DNA of 64,000 nucleotides from Gemmatimonadota bacterium (GCA_016720805.1 JADKJZ010000014.1:193772-257771); one strand, 5' to 3'; numbered from the stretch's first letter, positions 6,226 through 64,000 are shown. Program-made: numbers and translations. The notes: generated from the sequence alone by a model not told the origin.

Positions 6226-6657
6226 GTGGCACGCACCAGACGTCGCGGTGGCACCAACGTCGCACCACCGTCCGAAGCAGCGGTTCTCCCAGGTCCCGCC
6301 GGCACCACCGTTTCTCGCCCCGCTGGACGCACCTACGGCTCCCATCGTGAATGGCTCCTGGCCAGGCACGGGTCGGTGTGCGCGTACTGTGGCGCCAAGG
6401 TTCCACCCGAAACCATCACGCTCGACCACGTCCGGCCGCGTCGCGGCCAGTCGGCCTACGACCGGCCCGACAACCTGGTCCTCGCCTGCCGCCCCTGCAA
6501 CGCCGCCAAGGCCGACATGCCGCTGCTGGCGTTCCTGATGGCGCGCCGCGCGCGTGGTGTCTTCCTGCTGCACTACGGCGATCACCTCTCCGACCCGCTG
6601 AAGGAATTGGTGCGGAAGTCGAGTGAGCGGCCGTTGTTGCCGCCGGAGAGTCGTTAG
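6226..6657 (+). CDS. HNH endonuclease
   Basis: CAYCG ... TLDHVRPRRGQ ... NLVLACRPCNAAK (His-Me finger with Cys pairs). GTG 6226 is preceded by GGAAG. Lower-GC promoter-like DNA at 6150-6225. The stop TAG lies in the heptamer array. Confidence 0.75.
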   Translation: MARTRRRGGTNVAPPSEAAVLPGPAGTTVSRPAGRTYGSHREWLLARHGSVCAYCGAKVPPETITLDHVRPRRGQSAYDRPDNLVLACRPCNAAKADMPLLAFLMARRARGVFLLHYGDHLSDPLKELVRKSSERPLLPPESR

Positions 6658-6783
6658 TCGTTAGTCGTTAGTCGTTAGGACGTAATGGAAAGAGGGTCGC
6701 GCATCACGGCAAATTGCTCGTGACTCGCGACCCTCTCAGCCTTTCACCCTAACGACTAACGACTAACGACTAACGACTAACGA
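6651..6783. repeat. Composite palindromic element: 4x TCGTTAG, GC hairpin, 5x CTAACGA
   Basis: Left array 6651-6678. Inner 11-bp stem AGAGGGTCGCG/CGCGACCCTCT at 6691-6736. Right array 6749-6783. Lies between convergent HNH and kgd. Confidence 0.9.
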
Positions 6784-9700
6784 CTCCAGCACCCTTTCCC
6801 CCCAACGCCTCTCCCACAATCCGCGCCTGCTCCGCCTTGTGCGCCGAGAGATAGCCCTCGGCTGGCGAGGCGCGCTCGGGACGGCCGATGTAGCGCATCG
6901 TCACGCCGGCCGGGAGAATGGTGCGCATCCGCGGCTCGATGAACGACCAGGCGCCCATGTTGCGCGGCTCTTCCTGCACCCACGCCACGTCGGTCAGCGA
7001 CGGATAGCGCGACAGCAGTTCCTTCACCTCGCGCTCGGGGAAGGGATAGAGCTGCTCGATCCGGGCGATCGGCGGGCGATCATCGCCGAGCTTGGCCGCC
7101 TCTTCGACGAGGTCGTAGTAGACCTTGCCGGTGCAGAGCAGCAGCGTGCGCGCGGCGGCGCGGCGACCGTTGGTGGCCGGATCGTCGAGGACCGTCTCGA
7201 AGCGGCCCGAGGAGAGATCGGCCAGCGAGCAGCTTGCGGCCGTGGCGCGGAGCAACGACTTCGGCGTCATCACGACCAACGGCCGGCGGATCGCCCACTT
7301 CGCCTGACGGCGCAGGACGTGGAAGTACTGCCCCGAGGTGGAGCAGTTGACCACGCGGATGTTGCCCTCGGCGGCCGACTGCAGGAAGCGCTCGACGCGC
7401 CCGCTGGAATGCTCCGGCCCCTGGCCCTCATAGCCGTGCGGCAGCAGCAGCGTGAGCCGCGAGGTGACGCCCCACTTCGACAGACTCGACGCGAGGAACT
7501 GGTCGAGCATCACCTGCGCGCCGTTCACGAAGTCGCCGAACTGCGCCTCCCACACCACCAGCGCCTCGGGCGCCGCCGTGGCATAGCCGTACTCGAAACC
7601 GATCGTCGCCAGTTCGGAGAGCGGCGAGTTGTGCACCTCGAGCGGCGCCGAGGCGCCTGGCAGCGCCTGCACCGGCGCGAAGACGTCGCCATTCAGTGCG
7701 TCGTGCAGGACCAGGTGGCGATGGGAGAAGGTGCCGCGCCCCACGTCCTGGCCGGTGAGCCGGATCGGAGTCCCCTCGACCAGCAGCGAGGCAAACGCCA
7801 GCGCTTCGGCGTGTCCCCAGTCGATGCCATGCGGTTCGATCAGCGCGCTGCGACGCTTCTCGAGCTGCTTCACCAGCTTCGGGTGCACCGTGAAGCCGGC
7901 CGGCCACGAGAGGAGCTGCTCGTTGAGCGAGGCGATCATCTCCGCCGGCAACGCCGTCTCGAGTTCGCCGGCCACGCCCGCATCGCGCGCCGGCTCGACC
8001 ACGGCAGCCGGCCGCCCGATCGACGACTTGAAGGAGGTCTGGATCTCGACAAAGCGGTCGTACGTCTTGGTCACCAGCGCATCGGCATCTCCAGCCGAGA
8101 GCACGCCGGCGCTCGCCAACTGCTCGGCGTAGCGGGCGCGCACCGTCGGCATCTCCTTGATCCGCGCGTACATCACCGGCTGCGTGTAGCCCGGCTCGTC
8201 CGTCTCGTTGTGCCCGTGGCGGCGATACCCCACCAGATCGATGAGCACGTCGTCTTCGAACTTGACGCGGTACGCCATCGCCAGGCGGACGGCCGCGAGG
8301 CAGGCCTCCGGGTCGTCGGCGTTGACGTGGATGATCGGGATGTCGAAGCCCTTGGCGAGGTCCGACGCCCAGCGCGTCGAGCGGCCGTCGCGCGGGTCGG
8401 TGGTGAAGCCGACCTGATTGTTGGCAATCAGGTGGACCGAGCCGCCGGTGTGATAGCCCGCGAGGTCGCCGAGATTCAGCGTCTCGGCCACGACGCCCTG
8501 CCCCGGGAAGGCGGCGTCACCATGGATGATCACGGGCAGCGCGGCCGTCGTGTCGACCACGGCTTCGCGGCCGCGACGATTGGTCTGCGCCGCGCGCGCC
8601 CGGCCATCGACCACCGGCCCGATGAACTCGAGGTGACTCGGGTTCGGCAGCAGCGCGACCGTGATGGCCTTGCCACCCTGCGTGACGAACGCTCCCTCGG
8701 CGCCGTGATGGTACTTCACGTCGCCGGTGCCACCATCTGGGGTCATCCCGCCGGTCGGTTGCTTGGCGCCTTCGAATTCGGCAAAGAGTGCCTCGTACGG
8801 GCGGCCGACGGTGTGCACCAGCACGTTCAGGCGGCCGCGGTGCGCCATGCCGAGCACCACGTCGCGTGCGCCCGCGTCTGCGGCGAGCTCGATCGTGAGG
8901 TCGAGCATCGGGACCATGATGTCGAGCCCTTCGATCGAGAAGCGCTTGGCACCGAGATACGCCTTGCCGAGGAAACGTTCGAGCCCCTCGACCTGCGTGA
9001 GCCGCTCGAGCAGGGCATGCTGCGCCTCCGCCGTGATCGGCTGGCGATGGGCGCCCGATTCGATCTGCTGCCGCAGCCAGACGCGCTGCTCGTGCGAGGC
9101 GATGTGCTCGACTTCGTAGGCGATCGTACCGCAATAGGTGGCCTGCAGGTGGGGCAGCGCCTCGGCGAGCGTCTTCCCGGGGACGGCGATGCGCAGCACG
9201 TCGGTCGGGATGGTCGCCATCGTGGCCTCGTCGAGGCCGACCGTGGCCGGGACGAGCGCCGGATCGCCGACCGGCGGCGTCCCGAGCGGATCGAGCTGCG
9301 CGGCCAAGTGGCCGTGGGTCCGGAACGCCTTGATCAGCGCCATCCCGGCCGCCACGTGCTGCAGCTGGGCCGGCGACGTGGTCGTGGCGGCGCTCGCGAT
9401 CGGCATCATGCCGGTCCAGCCCGCGGAGGCCGGGGGCGCGGCGACGGAGGCCGTTCCGGGGGTGGCGGTGAGGGGCGACGGGGTCGCAAGGCCGAAGGCC
9501 GCGAAGATCCCCTCGTAGAAACCGTGCTCGCCCTGAAGGAACTGGTCCACCAGCTTGAGGAAGTTCCCCGACTCCGCGCCCTGGATCACGCGGTGATCAT
9601 ACGTCGAGGTGATCATCATCACCTTGGCGATGCCGAGCGTGGCGATCTGTTCCTTCGACATCCCGGTGAACTCGGGCGGATAGGCGATCGCCCCGGTGGC

Positions 9701-10408: not shown

Positions 10409-10495
10409 GGCATCTCCGGCTTGGAGTCAACCTGACAAGATAATCGAGGAATCCCGGCCAGCGACCTCGCAGACACGACCCGTGACCTGTAACCC

Positions 10496-10564
10496 GGGTC
10501 GCGGGTCACGGGTCACTGGTCACGGCTCCTGGTCAGCGTTCACCCCTCACCCCTCACCCCTCAC
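10496..10564. repeat. Direct period-7 array: GGGTCGC, 2x GGGTCAC, TGGTCAC, GGCTCC, TGGTCAG, CGTTCAC, 3x CCCTCAC
   Basis: Read directly. One 6-nt unit, otherwise a single register. Lies in the divergent kgd/fadI gap and ends 15 nt before ATG 10580. Confidence 0.9.
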
Positions 10565-29147: not shown

Positions 29148-29168
29148 CTCTCGCTTCTCGCTTCTCGC
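29148..29168. repeat. Period-7 tract: CTCTCGC, 2x TTCTCGC
   Basis: Read directly, in the 41-nt gap between the lipoprotein start and the mazG stop. Confidence 0.8.
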
Positions 29169-29508: not shown

Positions 29509-29668
29509 TGGTGGGGGTGAGGGGAAGACGGCGAACAGCGAACGGCGAACGGGGGGAAACGTACCCGCGGAAGGGGTGAGGCGAAACGCGTTGCGTCCCA
29601 ACTCCCGTTCACCGGTCACTGGTCACTGGTCACTGGTCACCCCTCACCCCTCACCCCTCACCCCTCAC
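29509..29668. repeat. Period-7 arrays in a divergent gap. Left: GGGGTGA, GGCGAAC-type. Right: CGTTCAC, CGGTCAC, 3x TGGTCAC, 4x CCCTCAC
   Basis: Left tract 29509-29557, right tract 29606-29668. The centre contains the palindrome AACGCGTT (29584-29591). Confidence 0.9.
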
Positions 29669-29717
29669 CTATACTTCCCCCGCCAAACCAACCCGCCGTC
29701 CCCAACGGAGACCCTTG

Positions 29718-29966: not shown

Positions 29967-30036
29967 CGACCAGGCGGCGACCGCGAACGGGTCGCGGTTG
30001 CCGGCCGCCTTTCAGCAGCGACGATCTTTCCCCCCC

Positions 30037-32154
30037 ATGGCTACTCGAACCCCTGCCCGCTCGCGGTCCGCCACCAAGCTCGACAAGGCCGACCTGCTTG
30101 AGTTCTACCGGTTGATGCTCCTCTCCCGGCGGCTCGACGACAAGGAAATCCAGCTCAAGCGCCAGAATCGGATCTTCTTCCAGATCTCCGGCGCCGGGCA
30201 CGAAGCGGTCCTGGTGGCGGCGGCGAAGGTGTTCCGCGCCGCCCACGACTGGTTCTACCTCTACTACCGCGACCGCGCCTTCTGCCTCGGCCTCGGCATG
30301 ACCGCCACCGAGCAGCTCCTCTCGGCCGTCGCGGCCGCCGAGGACCCGAACTCCGGTGGCCGGCAGATGCCGTCGCACTGGGGGCACAAGGAGCTCAACA
30401 TCGTCTCGACCTCCTCGCCGACCGGGACCCAGTTCCTGCAGGCGGTGGGCGCGGCCGAGACCTGGCTCCGCGCCTCCGCCGACGAGCGGCTGAGCGAGCT
30501 GACCCGCGGCGATGAGGTGGTCCTCTGCACCACCGGCGACGGCACCACCAGCGAGGGTGAGTTCTGGGAAGCGATGAATTCCGCGTGCAACCTCAAGTTG
30601 CCGGTGGTCTTCCTGGTCGAGGACAACGGCTACGCGATCTCCGTCCCGGTCTCGGTGCAGACCGCCGGCGGGTCGATCTCGAAGCTCTTTGCCTCCTTCC
30701 CGAACCTCTTGATCGTCGAGGTCGACGGCTGCGATCCGGTGGCCTCCCATGAGGCGATGCAGAAGGCGCACGACTACTGCCGTCAGCGGAAGGGGCCGGC
30801 GCTCGTCCATGCCCACGTCATCCGCCCCTACTCGCATTCGCTCTCGGACGATGAGGTCCACTACCGGACCACCGCCGAGCGTGAGGCTGATGCGCTCCGC
30901 GATCCAGTGGTCGTCTTCCCGCGGCAGCTGGTCGAACAGGGCGTGGCGACCGAAGCGGAATTGGCGCTGATTCAGCAGCAGATCGAGGAAGAGGTCACCA
31001 TCGCGACCGACATCGCGCTGGCCGCGCCGCAGCCGGCGCTGAACACCATCTACGACTACGTCTACTCGCCCGACGTCGATCCGACGGCCGAACAGTTCGA
31101 CACCGAAGACGATCCGCAGACCAGCGGCGACCCCACCACGATGGTCGACCTCCTCAACAGCTGCCTCAAGGACGAGATGACCCGCGATCCGCGGATCCTC
31201 GTCTTCGGCGAGGACGTTGCCGATGCCTCGAAGCCCGAGGCCCTCGGGGACGTGAAGGGGAAGGGCGGTGTCTTCAAGGTGACCTGGGGGCTGCAGAAGC
31301 TCTTCGGCTCGGACCGCGTCTACAACTCACCGCTCGCCGAGGCCAACATCGTCGGCCGCGCGATCGGCCTGGCCACGCGCGGGATGAAGCCGGTGGTCGA
31401 GATCCAGTTCTTCGACTACATCTGGCCCGCCTACATGCAGATCCGCGACGAACTCGCGCTGATGCGCTGGCGCTCCAACAACGCCTTCGCCTCGCCGGTC
31501 GTGATCCGCGTGACGTACGGCGGCTACCTCAAGGGTGGCGCGGTGTACCACTCGCAGACCGGCGCGGCGATCTTCACCGGCGTCCCCGGCCTCCGTGTGA
31601 TCTGCCCGAGCACCGCGCTCGATGCCAACGGACTCCTCCGGACGGCGATCCGTTGCGAAGACCCGGTGCTCTTCCTCGAGCACAAGCACCTCTACCGGCA
31701 GGCCTACAACAAGGGCGCCTACCCGGGCCCGAACTTCATGATTCCGTTCGGCAAGGCGAACGTGGTCAAGGAAGGCAGCGACGCCACGCTGATCACCTAC
31801 GGCGCCGTGGTCCAGCGCGCCGTGCAGGCCGCCAAGGACCTCGAGGAGGCCACCGGGCAGCGCGTCGAGGTGATCGACCTCCGCTCGCTCAATCCGGTCG
31901 ACTGGGACACCATCGCCGCCTCGGTCAAGAAGACCTCGCGCGTGATCGTCGCCTACGAGGATTCGCTCTCGTGGGGCTATGGCTCGGAGATCGCCGCGAA
32001 GATCGCCGACGAGATGTTCGAATGGCTCGATGCCCCGGTCCGCCGCGTCGCCGCGACCGACACCTTCGTCGCCTACGCGCCGGAGCTGGAAGACGTGATC
32101 CTGCCGCAGGTGGAGAGCTTGGGGAAGGCGATGCGGGAGATTCTGGCTTATTGA
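30037..32154 (+). CDS. 2-oxoacid (branched-chain/pyruvate type) dehydrogenase E1 component, fused alpha and beta subunits
   Basis: ATG 30037. E1-alpha ThDP region ([15 protein letters not shown]) followed by E1-beta transketolase-like region ([17 protein letters not shown]) in one 705-aa chain. Confidence 0.9.
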
Positions 32155-32156
32155 GG

Positions 32157-32295
32157 TCGTTAGTCGTTAGTCGTTAGTCGTTAGAAGTGGCATCATAAAG
32201 AGGCCGGCCTCCCAGTTGGGAAGCCGGCCTCTGTCTCTAACGACCAACGCCTAACGACTAACGACTAACGACTAACGACTAACGACTAACGACTA
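32157..32295. repeat. Composite palindromic element: 4x TCGTTAG, hairpin AGAGGCCGG...CCGGCCTCT, 8x CTAACGA-type
   Basis: Left array 32157-32184, hairpin 32199-32232, right array 32237-32292 plus CTA. Lies between the convergent E1 and kinase genes. Confidence 0.9.
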
Positions 32296-34269
32296 CAACC
32301 CCTTCACCTCCGCCGCCGCGCTGATCGCATCGTCGATATCCCGCGTGATCGCGCGCGCCTGCTGGGTCGCCTGCGCCAGGTGGTCGCTCATCGCGCCGAC
32401 GCCGCGCTCCTTGATGCGCAGCAACTCGAGCCGAAGCCCCTGCATCATCAGCACGCTGCTCTCCAGCTTGTCGGTGATCTCGGTGCGCCGGTTCTGCAGG
32501 TCGAGGCATGCCTTCAACTGGCGGTCGAGCATCGCCTGCTGCCGGTCGCGCTCCTCGCTTTCCGGTCGCGACTTGATCTCGGCGAGCCGTGCCTCGATGG
32601 TCACGACATCCTGCACGCCGACCCGATCCATGTCGTTGAGGGTGCGCGCCAACTGCCCGGCGCGGTCATGGAGCCCATCGATGGTCTGGATCATCTCGGG
32701 GAACATCGAGCGGTCGGTGTCGGTCAGCGAGCCCCACAGCGAGATGATCGCGCTGCGGTCGCCATAGACCTGCTGCATCTTCGGCAGCCACGGCCCATAC
32801 TCCTCGGCCTTCGGCGCCGCGACCTGCCGGATCCCCTTGAGCGCCTTCGCCTGGCTCGCCGGAATGGCATCGGGGGCGTCGGGACGATTGAGCACGTCGC
32901 GCCAGGAATACCCCGCCTGCCACAGCTCGGAGTAACGCTTGAAGAGGCCGATCGACATCCCGCCGGCGACGAAGAGGAACCACGGCCCATCGAGGCCGGT
33001 CGCCACGTTGATCATGAAGCAGCCACCGACCACCGCGGCGAACTTGGCGAACTCCGCCCGCGCCTGGCGCACCAGCTTCGGCTCGCCCGTTTCGGGAAGC
33101 GCCGGCTCGTTGTTCTTGAGTCCGCGGCGCACCGCGCGCCCCTGCTCACGCGCCACCCGCCCGGCGTCGCGGAGACCGCCGACATCGCGCGCGGTCGGGC
33201 GGCCGGGGAGGTTGTTCCGATTGCCGGCCGCGTCGCCCAGCGGTGCCCGGGTCGGCCGCGCCGTCCCCCGGTCGCCAAGCGGGGGACGCGCCAGCGGGCG
33301 CGGCGACGGGCGGGTCGGATTCCCGGCGCGGTTGGGCGAGGCGGTCCGGTTCGGCGCCGCGGCACGCTCGGCCGCGCGCATGCCGAGGCCGGTCGGCCGA
33401 TAGCCCGCCACCGAGCGGCTCTCCAGCGCCCGACGCAGCGCCTCGGCCGAGGCCCAGCGGTTCTCCGGGTCCTTCTCGAGGCAACGGGCCACGGCCAACG
33501 AGAGGTCCTCCGGGATGTCCGGATACTTCTCGTGCAGCAGCGGCGCGACCTCGGTGATGTGCTTCATCAGGATGCCAGCCACCGTCGGGGCGTTGAACGG
33601 CAACTCCCCCGACAACATCTGATAGGCGACGACGCCGACCGAATAGAGGTCGCTCCGGCCGTCGATCTCTCGCTCGCCGGCGGCCTGCTCGGGGCTCATG
33701 TACGACGGTGTGCCGATGGCCATCCCCGCGGAGGTCAGCGTGGCGCTGCTGGTCGACGACATCGCCTTGGCAATGCCGAAGTCCGTCACCATCACGCGGC
33801 CGCGGGTCCCTTCGAGCAGGATGTTGTCCGGCTTGATGTCGCGATGGATGATCGACAGCGCGTGTGCGGCCGAGAGTGCGTCGGCCGTCTCACGCATGAT
33901 CCGGCGCGTCTCCTCGGCAGGGACGCGTCCACGCCGACGGATGCGGGCCGCGAGCGACTCGCCCTCGATCAGTCCCATCACGAAATAGACGATGCCCTTC
34001 CCCTGGCCGACGTCGTGGATGGGGACGATGTGCGGATGGGCCAGCTTGGCGGCCGTCTGCGCCTCGCGCGTGAACCGCTCGCGGATCTCGCTCGAGAACG
34101 CCAGCTCCGGCGGGAGCGCCTTGATCGCCACCCGTCGTTGCAGTCGTTCGTCCCGCGCACGGTACACCACCCCCATGCCGCCGCGACCGATCTCTCCCTC
34201 GATCGTATAGGCATCGCCGAGCGCCTCCTTCAGGAGGGCCGGCAGAGGATGCGGTGTGGGATCGGTCAT
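32293..34269 (-). CDS. Ser/Thr protein kinase with TM segment and C-terminal coiled-coil domain
   Basis: GRGGMGVVY, VAIK, HRDIKPDN, DFGIA and SPEQ. Hydrophobic FAAVVGGCFMINVATGLDGPWFLFVAGGMSIGLF, then about 200 aa of helical sequence. Confidence 0.9.
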   Translation of the reverse strand: MTDPTPHPLPALLKEALGDAYTIEGEIGRGGMGVVYRARDERLQRRVAIKALPPELAFSSEIRERFTREAQTAAKLAHPHIVPIHDVGQGKGIVYFVMGLIEGESLAARIRRRGRVPAEETRRIMRETADALSAAHALSIIHRDIKPDNILLEGTRGRVMVTDFGIAKAMSSTSSATLTSAGMAIGTPSYMSPEQAAGEREIDGRSDLYSVGVVAYQMLSGELPFNAPTVAGILMKHITEVAPLLHEKYPDIPEDLSLAVARCLEKDPENRWASAEALRRALESRSVAGYRPTGLGMRAAERAAAPNRTASPNRAGNPTRPSPRPLARPPLGDRGTARPTRAPLGDAAGNRNNLPGRPTARDVGGLRDAGRVAREQGRAVRRGLKNNEPALPETGEPKLVRQARAEFAKFAAVVGGCFMINVATGLDGPWFLFVAGGMSIGLFKRYSELWQAGYSWRDVLNRPDAPDAIPASQAKALKGIRQVAAPKAEEYGPWLPKMQQVYGDRSAIISLWGSLTDTDRSMFPEMIQTIDGLHDRAGQLARTLNDMDRVGVQDVVTIEARLAEIKSRPESEERDRQQAMLDRQLKACLDLQNRRTEITDKLESSVLMMQGLRLELLRIKERGVGAMSDHLAQATQQARAITRDIDDAISAAAEVKGL

Positions 34270-34572
34270 TCAGGATCCGGGCGGCGGGACAATGACAGTC
34301 GCGATACGGGACGCTAACCCCGGAATTTGTACCGAGATGCACCTGCGAGCAACGTGCCGAGCCGCACCTGCCGTCGCGACAGGAAGTGAAGTTTCCTCCC
34401 TGAAACGTTTGTGCCCCTCTGGCGGACCCCTCCGGGACCCATCGGCCAGCTCGGCAGGTATCTTGGGAGCAGGGCTGGCACGGCGGATGCCCCTTGCCTC
34501 CCCATCGCGCCGTGGACCGGTGCACCGCCCCCCTGCGGTCCCGTCCAGGCGCTGTGTCTCAAGGAGAACCTC

Positions 34573-37080
<2,508 letters not shown>

Positions 37081-37190
37081 TCGTTAGTCGTTAGTCGTTG
37101 GTCGTTAGGCACCTACTCGAAAGGCCGGTCTCCTTGCATGGAGGCCGGCCTTTCTCTAACGCCTAACGCCTAACGCCTAACGACCAACGA
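37081..37190. repeat. Composite palindromic element: 4x TCGTTAG-type, hairpin AAAGGCCGG...CCGGCCTTT, 3x CTAACGC + CTAACGA + CCAACGA
   Basis: Left array 37081-37108, hairpin 37120-37153, right array 37156-37190. Lies between convergent lon and the GGDEF gene. Confidence 0.9.
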
Positions 37191-37194
37191 CCCT

Positions 37195-38805
37195 TCACCC
37201 CATCTCCACCCTGTTCCGCCCCGAACTCTTCGCCCGATACAGCGCTTGATCCGCCGCTTCGGCCACCTGCGTGGCCGTCGTGCCCGAGCCGGGAAAGGCG
37301 CCGACGCCGGCGGAGACGTGCAGCGGGATCGGGTCGCAGCCGGGGAGGATGATCGGCGATTCGGCCAGCGCCTGTCGCAGCTTCTCGGCGGCGGCACGGC
37401 CATTCGCCGGTGGACACTTGCGCAGGATGATGCCGAATTCCTCGCCGCCATAGCGGCCGAGGAGATCGGAGCCGCGGATTGCCTTCCGGAACACCCGCGC
37501 CACGTGCACCAGCACCTGGTCGCCGACCAGGTGGCCGTAGGTGTCGTTGATCCGCTTGAAGTGGTCGAGGTCGAGCATCAGGAAGCAGAGCGGCTCGCCA
37601 TGACGCTGCGCGAAGGCGACCGCATACTCGAGCTCGGCCATCAACGTCGCGTGGTTCAGGATGCCGGTGAGGCCGTCGCGGTGCACCAGTTCGCGGATCC
37701 GCCGGCCACGCTCCGTGCGCGTGAGGACCAGCTGCAACAAGTGGCTCCGCTCGACCGGCTTCGCGAGGAAGTCGTCGCCCCCGGCACGCAGCCCTTCCAT
37801 CTGATCGGCGAGCGAGTCGCGCGCGGTCAGAAAGACGATCGGCACCAGCGCGAGTCGCGGGTCCTGCCGCATCAGTCGCGAGAGCGCGTAGCCGTCGACA
37901 TCGGGCAGATCGACATCGAGCAGCACGAGGTCCGGGGTCTCATGGGCCAACGCGTCCCGCGCAACCTGGGCCGACGCTGCCGTGGTGACGCGCGCATTCA
38001 TCTGGCCGAGCCAGGTGGCGACGAGCTGCGATTGCGCTGGATCGTCTTCGACCACGAGAATGTTGGCCGGCGGCGCGCCGATTTGGGCCAGGGCCCGCGC
38101 GTACTGCGCCAACCCCCTCGGCAGGGCGTTGGAGCCGAAGACCGCGTCGAGCCCGGCCGCCGCCGTGCGCAGGCGGTCGAACTGGTCGGTCGGGTCGGCC
38201 AGGACCACGGCACGCGGACGATCGTTGGTCGCCGCGGACCAGTAGCGCGCCAGCGAGAGCGGGTCGGTGTCGGCGTCGGTGCCGATCACCACCAGGTCAG
38301 GGCGCTCCGCCGGCGGCACGTCGAACGGATCGACTTCACCGGTCCGGACCGTCACCATGAAGCCGACCTCTTCGAGCGATCGCACCAGGGCATCGCGAGC
38401 CGTCGAGGGAGTCATCATCAGCAGCGCACGCCACCCGAACCCCGGAATCTTGCCGAGGACGGCCGGCAGCCCGACGTCGGTTGCCGCGTTGTTGAAGGCG
38501 TCCTCGAGATCGCGGATCGCCTGCGAAAAAATGTCGGCCTCGCGAATCGTCGGCGCCGGCGGGGTGAGGATCCGATGCTCCATGGCGCGTGACACATCGG
38601 TCACCCGCTGGAAGCCATACGATCCGCCCGAGCCGGCGAGACGATGGAAGCGCTGCCGCAACGACTCCAGTGCGTCCGGCTCGCCCGCCCGAAAGGCCGC
38701 CAGGTCCTTGCGGAGCTCCGCCAGGCGCGCGGGGGCCTCGCGGATGTACTCGTGCTGCAACTCCAGCATCGGATCGTCGGCGTCCAGTGGCAGCGTATCA
38801 GTCAT
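37195..38805 (-). CDS. Hpt - degenerate receiver - receiver - GGDEF diguanylate cyclase
   Basis: Start moved to ATG 38805. HRLAGSGGSYGF (Hpt His). LLDVDLPDVDG ... FLTA ... KP (REC). RYGGEEFGIIL (active GGEEF). Confidence 0.85.
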   Translation of the reverse strand: MTDTLPLDADDPMLELQHEYIREAPARLAELRKDLAAFRAGEPDALESLRQRFHRLAGSGGSYGFQRVTDVSRAMEHRILTPPAPTIREADIFSQAIRDLEDAFNNAATDVGLPAVLGKIPGFGWRALLMMTPSTARDALVRSLEEVGFMVTVRTGEVDPFDVPPAERPDLVVIGTDADTDPLSLARYWSAATNDRPRAVVLADPTDQFDRLRTAAAGLDAVFGSNALPRGLAQYARALAQIGAPPANILVVEDDPAQSQLVATWLGQMNARVTTAASAQVARDALAHETPDLVLLDVDLPDVDGYALSRLMRQDPRLALVPIVFLTARDSLADQMEGLRAGGDDFLAKPVERSHLLQLVLTRTERGRRIRELVHRDGLTGILNHATLMAELEYAVAFAQRHGEPLCFLMLDLDHFKRINDTYGHLVGDQVLVHVARVFRKAIRGSDLLGRYGGEEFGIILRKCPPANGRAAAEKLRQALAESPIILPGCDPIPLHVSAGVGAFPGSGTTATQVAEAADQALYRAKSSGRNRVEMG

Positions 38806-39488
38806 CGGCCTTCCCGCAGAGCGGCGAGGGTAGTGCGCGCGGCCGCGACGAATGCCGCGCCGCTGCCCCAGTGCCCTGAGAAGCGCTCGCCATCGCGAGC
38901 TCCCACCAAGGCCGCACGATCGTCGACGACCAGCAGGACTGGTTCGCCGGGCCACGCCGCGGGCGGAATCACCGTCATCGGAATGGCGCCAAGCGGCACC
39001 TCAGCCGTCGAGGCCACGTCGAGCGTGACCCCGGACGCGGCCGCCCGCCGGAGATGCGGCGCCAAGGTGAGGCAGCCATCGGGGGGCGCCAACAGCTCCA
39101 CCGAACGCTCGGCCCGGGCGATCTCGTGCCCCATCAACTGCACCGCGCCGCGGGACGAAGCGAGTTCAACCAATGTCGGCGTGGCCGGAACGGCGAGCGC
39201 CGCGAGTGCCTCGCCCAGCTTGTCCATCGCCTCGCCCTGCCGATCACTCAACCGCGCCAGGAGGGTACTGGGGGGCTCCGGACGGAACTGCCGAGGCCGC
39301 CCCTCTTCGACGCGCGCCGCTCCCTTCGCCACCAACCCCTCGAGGGCGGCGTAGACGTTGGCGCGCGCCAAGCCTGCCGCGCGGGCAATGGTGTAGCCCG
39401 TGCCGGGGCCGCCGGTCAGCAGGACCTCGTAGATGAGGCCCTCGGTCGGGGTGAATCCAAACGGCGTCAGGTCGAGCCGACCCGCCAT
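38802..39488 (-). CDS. TrmB-family HTH transcriptional regulator
   Basis: N-terminal wHTH EGLIYEVLLTGGPGTGYTIARAAGLARANVYAALEGLVAKG. ATGA overlap with the GGDEF gene. Confidence 0.7.
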   Translation of the reverse strand: MAGRLDLTPFGFTPTEGLIYEVLLTGGPGTGYTIARAAGLARANVYAALEGLVAKGAARVEEGRPRQFRPEPPSTLLARLSDRQGEAMDKLGEALAALAVPATPTLVELASSRGAVQLMGHEIARAERSVELLAPPDGCLTLAPHLRRAAASGVTLDVASTAEVPLGAIPMTVIPPAAWPGEPVLLVVDDRAALVGARDGERFSGHWGSGAAFVAAARTTLAALREGR

Positions 39489-40723: not shown

Positions 40724-40830
40724 GGATGATGGATGATAGATGATGGATGATTGATCAGAAATCAGTCTTGATCGCCACGCGGATGTCCGTCCGTTCGAAT
40801 CCATCGTCCATCATCCATCATCCATCATCC
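40724..40830. repeat. Inverted period-7 arrays: about 5x GGATGAT-type and about 5x ATCCATC-type
   Basis: Left array 40724-40758, right array 40799-40830, inside a lower-GC island (about 40640-40860). Confidence 0.85.
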
Positions 40831-44285: not shown

Positions 44286-44416
44286 ACGGCGAACGGCGAA
44301 CGGCGAACGGCGAACGGCGAACAGCGGTAAGGGGTGAGGAGTGAGGGGGAACAAACCCCTGACCCCTCACCCCTCACCGTTTCCAACCGTTCGCTGTTCG
44401 CTGTTCGCTGTTCGCT
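44286..44416. repeat. Nested palindrome: 5x ACGGCGA + GGGGTGA-type block, loop, CCCCTCA-type block + 4x GTTCGCT
   Basis: Outer arms 44286-44327 and 44389-44416. Inner arms 44331-44348 and 44356-44378. Fills the whole pfkA/VOC convergent gap. Confidence 0.9.
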
Positions 44417-45220: not shown

Positions 45221-45419
45221 GGTGAACGGTGAACGGTTAAAAGTGACCTGTGACCGGTGACCAGTGATCAGGAACTGGTAAGGGGTGAGGGGGCGCCCAT
45301 TCGGACGGATGTTCACGTCCTCCCGTTTCACCTGCCAGCCGTAACACCTCGGTCACAGGTCACAGGTCACAGGTCACAGGTCACAGGTCACAGGTCACAG
45401 GTCACTGGTCACCGTTCAC
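45221..45419. repeat. About 200-nt mirrored period-7 structure. Left: 2x GGTGAAC, GTGACC-type, GGGGTGA-type. Right: CGGTCAC, 7x AGGTCAC, TGGTCAC, CGTTCAC
   Basis: Left tract 45221-45290, right tract 45350-45419. The pabA stop TGA lies inside the right tract. Confidence 0.9.
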
Positions 45420-48374: not shown

Positions 48375-48465
48375 AGTGAACGGTCAACGGTGAACGGTGA
48401 ACGGGCCTCCGAGCCGCAGCGCCGCAACCGATGGCATCGATCACCGTTCACCGTTCACCGTTCAC
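48375..48465. repeat. Inverted period-7 arrays: AGTGAAC GGTCAAC 2x GGTGAAC / CGATCAC 3x CGTTCAC
   Basis: Left array 48375-48402, 35-nt centre, right array 48438-48465 ending 18 nt before ATG 48484. Confidence 0.9.
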
Positions 48466-58896: not shown

Positions 58897-58931
58897 GACG
58901 ATGATCGATGATCGATCATCGATGATCGATC
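58897..58931. repeat. Period-7 array: GACGATG ATCGATG ATCGATC ATCGATG ATCGATC
   Basis: Read directly. Self-complementary ATCGAT core. Lies 2 nt after the stop at 58894. Confidence 0.9.
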
Positions 58932-60168: not shown

Positions 60169-60290
60169 GGAACGGCGAACGGCGAACGGCGAACGGGACG
60201 AAGGGTGAAACGTGAGACGTGAAACGGGAGCCAACGAGCGGCCCACGTTTCACGTTTAACCTTTCACCATCTCCGTACCCGTTTGCCGTC
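60167..60290. repeat. Period-7 arrays. Left: 3x GGCGAAC + GTGAAAC/GTGAGAC block. Right: GTTTCAC-type block + degenerate GTTTGCC
   Basis: Left tract 60167-60229, centre GCCAACGAGCGGC, right tract 60244-60290. Starts at the ispH stop codon. Confidence 0.85.
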
Positions 60291-62681: not shown

Positions 62682-62710
62682 ATCGATGATCGATGATCGA
62701 TCATCGATTA
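62682..62710. repeat. Period-7 array: 2x ATCGATG, ATCGATC, ATCGATT
   Basis: Read directly. The yceI stop TAA (complement of 62708-62710) lies in the last unit. Confidence 0.85.
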
Positions 62711-63388: not shown

Positions 63389-63423
63389 ATCGATGATCGA
63401 TCATCGATGATCGATCATCGATG
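63389..63423. repeat. Period-7 array: ATCGATG ATCGATC ATCGATG ATCGATC ATCGATG
   Basis: Read directly. It encodes the last residues (SSMIDHR) and the TGA stop of the polymerase gene. Confidence 0.9.
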
Positions 63424-64000
63424 ACTCCGAGCTGCCCTGCGGGCGGGGTCCCAATCGCGCCAGCATCCGCTCCAGCCGCTCCAGGTGGCTGATCGTCACG
63501 GTCAACGCCCCGAACGATTCCTCCACCACGCCACGGAAAATAAAGGGCCCCTGGTCGAAGAGGACGTGGGCGCGCTCCCTGTAGACCGCCGGGAAGAGGA
63601 CGCACTCGATCAACCCGTCGCCGTCGTCAAAGGTGACGAACTGCATCGGTTCGTGGGTCGCGGTGTGGACCGGTTTGCCGGTGGTGTACATCCCGGCCAT
63701 CAGTACGCGCTTGCCGACGTGCCGTTGCAAGTCGCTGCTCTTCACCAGGCGGAAGCGGGTGAGCTCTTCGGCGTGCAGCGCCATCGGGTGGGCGTCGAGG
63801 CAGAAGCCGAGCAGGGCCCAGGCATCGCGCCGTTTGCGTTCGGTGTCGTAGTCGCGAAGCGTGGGGACGGGGGGTGGCGTCGTCAGCATCTCCTCAGCAG
63901 CGGCCGTCACTCCGCGGTCGGTCGTATCGACCATCCACAACAGTTGCGGCCGAGTCATCCCACCCGCGATCCCATCGAGCGCGCCGACCTTCACCAGCAG
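63401..64000 (-). CDS. DNA polymerase III alpha-subunit family, C-terminal part (5' end outside window); DnaE2-like short tail
   Basis: Frame is open to the window edge. OB-fold region GKRVLMAGMYTTGKPVHT ... MQFVTFDDGDGLIECVLFP. The protein ends about 50 aa after the OB fold, as in the DnaE2/ImuC type (inference). Confidence 0.7.
   Translation of the reverse strand: MLVKVGALDGIAGGMTRPQLLWMVDTTDRGVTAAAEEMLTTPPPVPTLRDYDTERKRRDAWALLGFCLDAHPMALHAEELTRFRLVKSSDLQRHVGKRVLMAGMYTTGKPVHTATHEPMQFVTFDDGDGLIECVLFPAVYRERAHVLFDQGPFIFRGVVEESFGALTVTISHLERLERMLARLGPRPQGSSESSMIDHR

Follow-up and report, generated by a model that had tools for sequence, protein, structure and literature searches.

Heptamer-armed hairpins between converging genes of a Gemmatimonadota bacterium: resident cores and arms that turn over

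Two spacers between converging genes in a Gemmatimonadota genome carry elements of the same architecture, and their resemblance raises the question of whether one was copied from the other or both follow a common design. The spacers lie in a stretch of 64,000 nucleotides (GCA_016720805.1, JADKJZ010000014.1:193772-257771), the whole of which is called the window here. Element 1 stands between an E1 dehydrogenase gene and a protein kinase gene, and element 2 between lon and a GGDEF gene. A third element has the same arms around a different core. The original prediction, made from the sequence of the window, took this family for a mobilised, MITE- or REP-like module of about 130 nt, or else for the result of strong convergent selection on a terminator design. 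All three elements have the arm-hairpin-arm build that it described (element 3, placed at 6651-6783, with the same arms and an unrelated core), and its labels for the E1, kinase, lon and GGDEF genes are right by Pfam. The features are listed in Table 1; the gene calls come from our own frame-based heuristic.

Table 1. Genes, arms and cores at the three elements, in positions of the window
Feature	Position	Strand	Basis
ORF with HNH endonuclease domain, 163 aa	6166..6657	+	Pfam
Element 3: (AGTCGTT)x4.3, hairpin, (CTAACGA)x5.3	6649..6785	.	Tandem Repeats Finder, fold
E1 dehydrogenase / transketolase-type fusion gene	29998..32154	+	ORF list; Pfam E1_dh, Transket_pyr, Transketolase_C
Element 1 left arm, (GTCGTTA)x4.1	32156..32184	+	Tandem Repeats Finder, pattern search
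Element 1 core hairpin, AGAGGCCGGCCTCCCAGTTGGGAAGCCGGCCTCT	32199..32232	.	sequence, fold
Element 1 right arm, (CTAACGA)x8.4, with variant units CCAACGC	32237..32295	+	Tandem Repeats Finder
Ser/Thr protein kinase gene, convergent with E1	32293..34269	-	Pfam Pkinase
Lon protease gene	34411..37080	+	Pfam Lon_C, LON_substr_bdg, AAA
Element 2 left arm, (TTAGTCG)x4.6, including one TTGGTCG unit	37077..37108	+	Tandem Repeats Finder
Element 2 core hairpin, AAAGGCCGGTCTCCTTGCATGGAGGCCGGCCTTT	37120..37153	.	sequence, fold
Element 2 right arm, (CTAACGC)x3.9 then CTAACGA CCAACGA	37156..37190	+	Tandem Repeats Finder
Hpt / response-regulator / GGDEF gene, convergent with lon	37195..38955	-	Pfam

All three elements consist of (AGTCGTT)n and (AACGACT)n arms flanking a hairpin, lie between converging genes that Pfam labels, and have arms that contact or contain the flanking stop codons. 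At element 1, a single nucleotide (G32155) separates the TGA of the E1 gene (32152-32154) from the left arm, which gives TAG in all three frames of the plus strand, and the minus-strand TAG of the kinase gene is the final CTA of the right arm (32293-32295). The core, 34 nt and GC-rich, reads AGAGGCCGGCCTCCC-AGTT-GGGAAGCCGGCCTCT. At element 2, the stop of lon (TAG, 37078-37080) is the first TAG within the left arm, while the stop of the GGDEF gene lies 5 nt past the right arm; the core, AAAGGCCGGTCTCC-TTGCAT-GGAGGCCGGCCTTT, is also 34 nt long, and the CTAACGC variant of the right arm has no mirror in the left arm of the fold. Cores 1 and 2 sit directly 3′ of the stops of the two genes that converge on them, with GC-rich stems of 14-15 bp and loops of 4-6 nt, and each is followed by TCTCTAACG, as had been noted. 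Element 3 has its arms at 6649-6678 and 6749-6785 and its hairpin, AGAGGGTCGCG...CGCGACCCTCT, at 6691-6736; this hairpin is unrelated to the other cores. The stop of the HNH ORF (TAG, 6655-6657) lies in its first arm unit and that of a SucA/Kgd-like gene (6770-6772) within its right arm, 13 nt in.

Within the window, TCGTTAGTCGTTAG with at most one mismatch occurs 20 times, always inside elements 1-3, where none is expected (100 shuffles). Each element folds on both strands as a single long hairpin of -73 to -100 kcal/mol (z of -11 to -16), and no shuffled sequence is as stable. Coding sequence runs into the repeat at element 3. The last codons and stop of the HNH ORF, AGT CGT TAG, are the first heptamer unit of the arm; in the sister species G010 the residues at this end are unchanged and the codons are AGT CGG TGA. 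The SucA/Kgd-like protein, of 1212 aa with an E2 acyltransferase domain fused to E1, has its last four residues encoded by arm units (6770-6785), and its C-terminus therefore depends on the repeat. Eleven more heptamer elements are present in the window, at 10495-10564, 29149-29168, 29528-29669, 40724-40830, 44286-44416, 45221-45412, 48376-48465, 58899-58930, 60170-60267, 62682-62708 and 63389-63424. Their units are CGGGTCA/TCACCCC, TCTCGCT, GGATGAT/ATCCATC, ACGGCGA with inner GAGGGGT arms, GGTCACA (8.9 copies), GTGAACG/TCACCGT, CGATGAT, GAACGGC, GTGAAAC/CACGTTT and ATCGATG, and several are nested, with one unit in the outer arms and another in the inner ones.

The two cores had been called near-identical. 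Their stems are indeed related, but in a global alignment only 25 of 34 positions match (72%), nearly all of them in the palindromic stem motif AGGCCGG / CCGGCCT. Since the match is mostly confined to the stem, and both the loops and the arm-to-stem spacers of 12-14 nt are unrelated, that description is too strong. The value of 72% ranks 85th among 126 cross-locus pairs of cores, the mean of which is 74%, while each core is nearest (84%) to its own orthologues; core 2 comes nearest to the hairpin that species G064 has at the orthologous spacer. Recent copying between cores 1 and 2 is ruled out by this ranking. The best match to element 1 elsewhere in its own genome reaches 77-79%, and this is due to the arms. 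An exact 28-mer of the E1 gene end gave no match among metagenome and genome contigs, a set that seems to exclude the window's own genome. Hairpins of the form AGGCCGGC..GCCGGCCT number only five in the genome, three with AGTCGTT arms, one with GTCGTAG arms and one with no clear arms. Among them are C3:228814, a third element that shares both arms and core type, of the kind that the original prediction had led one to look for, and C14:782675, a fourth with a core of the AAGGCCGGC..GCCGGCCTT type and the related GTCGTAG arms. All three AGTCGTT-armed elements with GGCCGGC cores share a rare variant of the right arm, AACGCC (about 12 of 369 units), which hints at descent of arm and core together, as first proposed.

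Conservation of the cores in relatives, which the proposal of an element family had also called for, is found at the orthologous spacers of many congeners. Thirty congeners supplied the E1-kinase spacer, and 30 the one between lon and the GGDEF gene. The kinase gene is adjacent in 23 congeners; the spacer is at least 40 nt long in 17 of these, and 16 of the 17 contain a long hairpin (z of -3.8 to -17). The AAGGCCGGC..GCCGGCCTT hairpin, a type found across the genus, is kept at this spacer in at least nine congeners, with arms made of GTCGTAG, GAGTCGT, GCGATGG, GATGACA, GCGACAG, CGAGAGA and other units. The lon-GGDEF spacer shows a like pattern, with at least 12 different units; CGATGAT, GAAGCGA, GATAGGA, GGTGAAC, AAGTGAG and more also occur across the two loci. 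At both, most species have a hairpin of the AAGGCCGGC..GCCGGCCTT type, or a close variant of it, in the same place, paired arms are always complementary, and most spacers of at least 40 nt fold at z < -5. A few species have spacers of just 5-36 nt. The gene trees nest these within element-bearing clades, and the short, empty spacers therefore represent repeated losses. Both cores are probably old, vertically inherited members of one hairpin type and not copies of one mobile module.

The arms, on the other hand, do belong to a dispersed family, as had been proposed for TCGTTAG: strict criteria yield 42 loci, and relaxed ones 85-90 arms with about 29-40 pairs. This family is one of about six in the genome, the assembly of which comprises 3.5 Mb at 68% G+C and is 96.6% complete. 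With mismatches allowed, 388-393 arrays have a period of 7, compared with 7-37 for periods 5, 6 and 8-11; exact arrays of at least three copies number 251 at period 7 and 0-54 at the other periods of 4-12. The main units are CGATGAT (82 arrays), GGATGAT (80), AGTCGTT (49), GAGGGGT (41) and AACGGTG (33), and there are minor ones. Among the genomes searched, (AGTCGTT)x3 and (GGATGAT)x3 are limited to this genus. GAGGGGT is the only unit that could form a quadruplex; AGTCGTT, GGATGAT and CGATGAT have no G-tract. Rfam gives no match at the gathering score in the whole window and only chance-level matches, at E values up to 1, in the interval 32100-37250. Long runs resembling homopolymers of G or C (GGGGGGGG...CCCC) occur at C9:104803-104950 and, in the sister species, at C13:~14160, and could be either G-tract elements or artefacts of assembly; one such run in the sister species occupies a spacer that holds an AGTCGTT element in the present genome.

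The placement of the arrays relative to genes is strict. They form 277 elements, 100 of which have at least two arrays, with 88 adjacent pairs of opposite strand, and the polarity is fixed: among the 277, (AGTCGTT)n..(AACGACT)n occurs and the reverse is never seen. In a test that does not depend on start codons, the incoming reading frame ends between -24 and +21 nt of the array edge in 237 of 258 cases (92%), compared with 3.5% at random positions, and 37% of gene stops fall within the array itself. The gene reads the unit and not its complement (10:0 for AGTCGTT, 13:1 for GGATGAT, 8:0 for GAGGGGT). The sense-strand unit holds a stop codon on 178 of 239 array sides (74%, with 10-15% expected by chance), which means that every frame is stopped within three units. 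The sense strand has more G than C (190:37), and this G-rich polarity is also seen in units free of stops (18:3). Within an array, variant units concentrate near the core and the gene-proximal half is the purest (for GGATGAT, 22 of 202 units against 69 of 202, p = 2e-8; for GAGGGGT, 10 of 57 gene-proximal against 24 of 57 core-proximal), a polarity not expected from simple slippage. Arms assort independently of cores. The 26 GGATGAT pairs enclose 26 unrelated cores, and under AGTCGTT arms are found the dispersed repeat REP2, a variant of it, GGCCGGC hairpins, inner arms of another heptamer, and unique hairpins or sequence.

How fast the arms change can be seen from the sister species G010 and from G015, the next closest in the trees; the relatives compared are mostly metagenome-assembled genomes. 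Each of the 14 window elements has an array at the orthologous site in both species, and the sister species keeps the unit in six of the 14. A further 24 AGTCGTT-armed loci, chosen for having TTAGTCG in the present genome, were also compared, and 22 of these sites are colinear and filled in G015. Where the present genome has TTAGTCG, G015 has TGAGTCG or TGAGTCC (TGAGTCS) at 17 of 23 loci and the sister species has GTCGTAG or GTCGTAA (TARGTCG) at 11 of 18, while each species retains AGTCGTT at just one or two loci. If the unit is written GTCGT+NN, the dinucleotides found in the species versions are TA, AG, AA and GA, exactly the four of the 16 that make a stop codon there. This is a concerted, family-wide switch of unit at 18-23 orthologous loci with the stop kept every time, and it is new here. 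Since the two arms of an element remain complementary and one set of orthologous loci carries species-specific versions of the unit, the arrays do not evolve independently. At four loci (k0, k14, k18 and k21) the core is conserved and the arms have switched. The reverse is seen at the site of element 3, where flanks that are 93-98% identical enclose three cores in three species: the unique hairpin in the present genome, a AAGGCCGGC hairpin in the sister species and REP2 in G015. Similarly, C3:228814 holds a GGCCGGC hairpin in the present genome and REP2 in both relatives. The concerted switch of arms and the swaps of cores mean that some copying between loci does occur. The idea of copying thus fails for the two window cores and survives in a weaker sense, as exchange between loci of one arm family. 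Differences in copy number of the slippage type are also seen between species. Many arm units of distant congeners (GCGATGG, GCGACAG, CGAGAGA) have no stop codon, so the stop rule does not extend to the whole genus.

REP/REPIN sequences and MITEs such as Correia elements are short palindromic intergenic repeats that are often flanked by converging genes and can terminate transcription or stabilise mRNA. Their consensus is fixed; a MITE is bounded by terminal inverted repeats and target-site duplications, and REPs flank their RAYT gene. The heptamer elements, unlike these, are tandem arrays of variable copy number with no duplication: in 17 paired elements the longest direct repeat averages 1.5 nt, compared with 1.15±0.27 nt for shuffled partners (p = 0.11). 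Presence and absence at orthologous sites, another hallmark of MITEs, is not seen, since all close relatives examined are occupied; occupied sites in sister species show persistence of the sites, and not presence or absence of an insertion. The search for a RAYT gene, which the original prediction had suggested, yields a single RAYT-like Y1_Tnp ORF in the genome (222 aa, at about 32.9 kb in the region C10:~31.4-34.6 kb, locus L065), with the motifs MPDHVHGLL (HUH) and RNYYERLID (Y). It is flanked by GGGCGACGCATGCGTCGCCC REPs, of which there are 38 copies, one of them near a heptamer array, and neither heptamer arms nor GGCCGGC hairpins are found in its flanks. On both sides it has GTAGGGGCGACGCATGCGTCGCCCC REPs and a 33-nt tandem repeat, GATGGCCCGCGCGGGCAGGGATCGCCATTGGTA, in about four copies. 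The ORF and these REPs are a classical REP-RAYT pair, unrelated to the heptamer arrays, and this gene was rejected as the mobiliser of the heptamer elements, being tied to another REP. Templated synthesis of the repeat by a reverse transcriptase was rejected as well, as a search for RVT_1 in the genome (96.6% complete) gave none.

REP2, by comparison, is a true MITE-like repeat. It is a dispersed palindrome of 53 copies (for example at C3:236881-237041 and C14:420490-420641, outside the window), with the sequence GTCATCCCGAxCGAAGxGAGGGA...TCCCTC...TCGGGATGAC, a longer form TGTCATCCCGAxCGAAGxGAGGGAyCTGCGTG...CACGCAGATCCCTCGC...CTCGGGATGACA and a variant GTCATCCTGAGCGxAGTCCGCG..CGGACGAAGTCGAAGGACC. 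Naked copies make up 23 of the 53, and the other 30 are enclosed centrally in heptamer palindromes, among which at least six units are represented. Because the species differ in the loci that hold near-identical copies, REP2 seems to be mobile at present and to target heptamer hairpins; no gene that mobilises it was identified. The heptamer arrays themselves should not be mistaken for transposon insertions.

The explanation that we consider probable is that hairpins reside between converging genes and have their stems lengthened by heptamer arms that are exchanged between loci. Of the two readings first offered, a common terminator design suits the cores better than a mobilised module. The hairpin would most likely serve as a stop for transcription from both sides, as a stabiliser of 3′ ends, or as both, and would do so without a strong U-run. 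A consensus terminator scan (at least 5 T in 8) calls neither core because neither has 5 T in 8; the tails are CUCUGUCUCU and CUUUCUCU, and the U-rich tract that normally follows a terminator stem is absent. The cores would represent a hairpin type, AAGGCCGGC-N-TCC / loop / GGA-N-GCCGGCCTT, that the genus uses at the two spacers and at a few others, and inverted arrays of a simple-sequence repeat of seven bases would extend its stem. The arms stand at gene ends, oriented so that the incoming gene reads the G-rich and mostly stop-bearing strand. They would lengthen and shorten by replication slippage, and they are replaced far faster than the flanking genes diverge. Recombinational exchange, both within a palindrome from one arm to the other and among loci with arm repeats in common, is the most economical candidate for what homogenises the arms and would also swap cores, and selection would retain the stop codon in the unit. 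What speaks against this mechanism is that a family-wide sweep of gene conversion is mechanistically awkward, since arrays that differ in one base in seven offer RecA no long identical stretch.

Other explanations account for parts of these observations. It could be that a non-autonomous, MITE/REPIN-like element of about 130 nt, consisting of arms and GGCCGGC hairpin, reached the E1-kinase, lon-GGDEF and C3:228814 sites as copies made in trans by a transposase. The three elements do have the same arm unit, the same type of core and the rare AACGCC variant, two further Gemmatimonadales genomes have this combination of arm and core at different genes, the hairpin at C3:228814 is new in comparison with the two close relatives, and the genome has a RAYT-like gene. 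However, both window cores are kept in place across many species with other arms, they are no closer to each other than the background of the hairpin type, their arm-to-stem spacers are unrelated, only five such hairpins exist in the genome, and, as noted, target-site duplications are lacking, the sites are filled in all close relatives examined and the RAYT-like gene adjoins a different REP. Comparison of orthologous sites largely refutes such a mobile element for the two window elements, and we regard it as very improbable overall. Evolution wholly in place, by local slippage, selection on the stem and convergence of units and core motif with no transfer, is slightly less improbable, although still unlikely. 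It agrees with the conserved structure and changing sequence at both loci, with the recurrence of the core type without arms or with other arms, with the slippage-type differences in copy number, and with the expansion of CTAACGC in one arm only. Yet about six units make up most of the 390 arrays, and independent drift would not yield some 20 orthologous loci that carry TTAGTCG, TARGTCG or TGAGTCS according to species, nor can point mutation place three cores at one site between nearly identical flanks.

The awkwardness of gene conversion has a bearing on a different kind of explanation, in which a partner acting in trans reads or writes the arrays, either a binding protein or RNA of drifting specificity or a templated addition of repeats whose template changes by one base. 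The single-base switch of unit across the family between sister species would suit it, as would the strict strand polarity relative to the incoming gene and the arrays that are purest near the gene and degenerate toward the core, a pattern expected from telomere-like addition. Poor RecA substrates and the purity gradient therefore leave some room for such a reader or writer. A candidate gene was not found, the assembly has no RVT_1, and such a partner is hard to reconcile with at least six unrelated families of units in one genome and with units that differ in places between the two arms, so that its probability appears to be as low as that of the mobile element. Least probable of all, and to be entertained only with much scepticism, is action of the arms through translation and Rho, by which the sense arm would stop ribosomes in all frames and the C-rich complementary arm would be a loading site for Rho that blocks antisense transcription. 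The excess of stop-bearing sense units, the gene stops inside arrays, the retention of the stop in four of four species-specific versions of the unit and the C-rich, G-poor antisense strand, whose polarity holds for stop-free units too, all agree with it. In paired elements, however, the C-rich arm would be base-paired and so hidden from Rho, and distant congeners have stop-free units. Resident hairpins with exchanged heptamer arms thus continue to be the preferred reading.

Heptamer arrays of this class are already known as the heptameric simple-sequence repeats of Xanthomonas, Nostoc and Beggiatoaceae. GGGAATC heptamers in Xanthomonas campestris and X. axonopodis, with 70-75 convergent (inverted) pairs per genome, and GGGGA(C/T)T heptamers in Nostoc PCC 7120 are mostly intergenic, are scarce between divergent genes and are not linked with insertion sequences (Rehm et al. 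2015, PMC4692102). Their G-rich strand is the coding strand, within 50 bp of a stop codon or overlapping it, and two species share occupied intergenic sites at which the repeats vary extensively in length and sequence (PMC4692102). The arrays described here are alike in their tandem 7-nt units, placement at stop codons, strand bias, convergent pairs and fixed sites with variation. They differ in that each of those genomes has one unit capable of forming a G-quadruplex, whereas the present genome has about six families, most of which cannot; this feature defines the subclass of Rehm et al. and not heptameric repeats in general. They also differ in that most units here bear a stop codon and the arms enclose a separate GC-rich hairpin or MITE-like core. 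The concerted switch of unit is absent from the description in PMC4692102, and simple slippage predicts neither the switch nor the retention of the stop.

The TAACTGA direct repeats of marine Beggiatoaceae, some Cyanobacteria and Bacteroidetes are intergenic and lineage-restricted, and tandem copies give stops in three frames in one orientation, because of which they overlap only the very end of a gene (MacGregor 2015, PMC4679880). Three-frame stops are common to these repeats and the present heptamers. The TAACTGA repeats lie mostly just upstream of start codons and almost never form inverted pairs, with a single case known, while the arrays here follow stop codons and form long hairpins. As cited in PMC4679880 and PMC4692102, the survey of long simple-sequence repeats by Mrazek et al. 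(2007) found period 7 over-represented and ascribed this to polymerase slippage, and the STRR heptamers of heterocystous cyanobacteria comprise several families per genome, three of them in Calothrix. As represented in those two papers, this work concerns general statistics, without the arm-core-arm build, the placement at stop codons or a comparison of orthologous loci.

A broader interpretation, which we put forward tentatively and think somewhat unlikely, is that the arms form a layer of 'punctuation' that is actively homogenised across the genome, by cassette exchange or by a reader or writer, and selected for stops in all frames at gene ends. If this were true, a family of about 40 loci would switch its unit in step (TTAGTCG, TARGTCG, TGAGTCS) while the cores stay or swap. 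In many bacteria no long simple-sequence repeats are as over-represented as the heptameric ones, and since 52 sequenced species of this genus have the same spacers filled, changes of unit, arm and core can be followed on a tree. For annotation, the arrays supply or adjoin the true stops of many genes and encode the last residues of some proteins.
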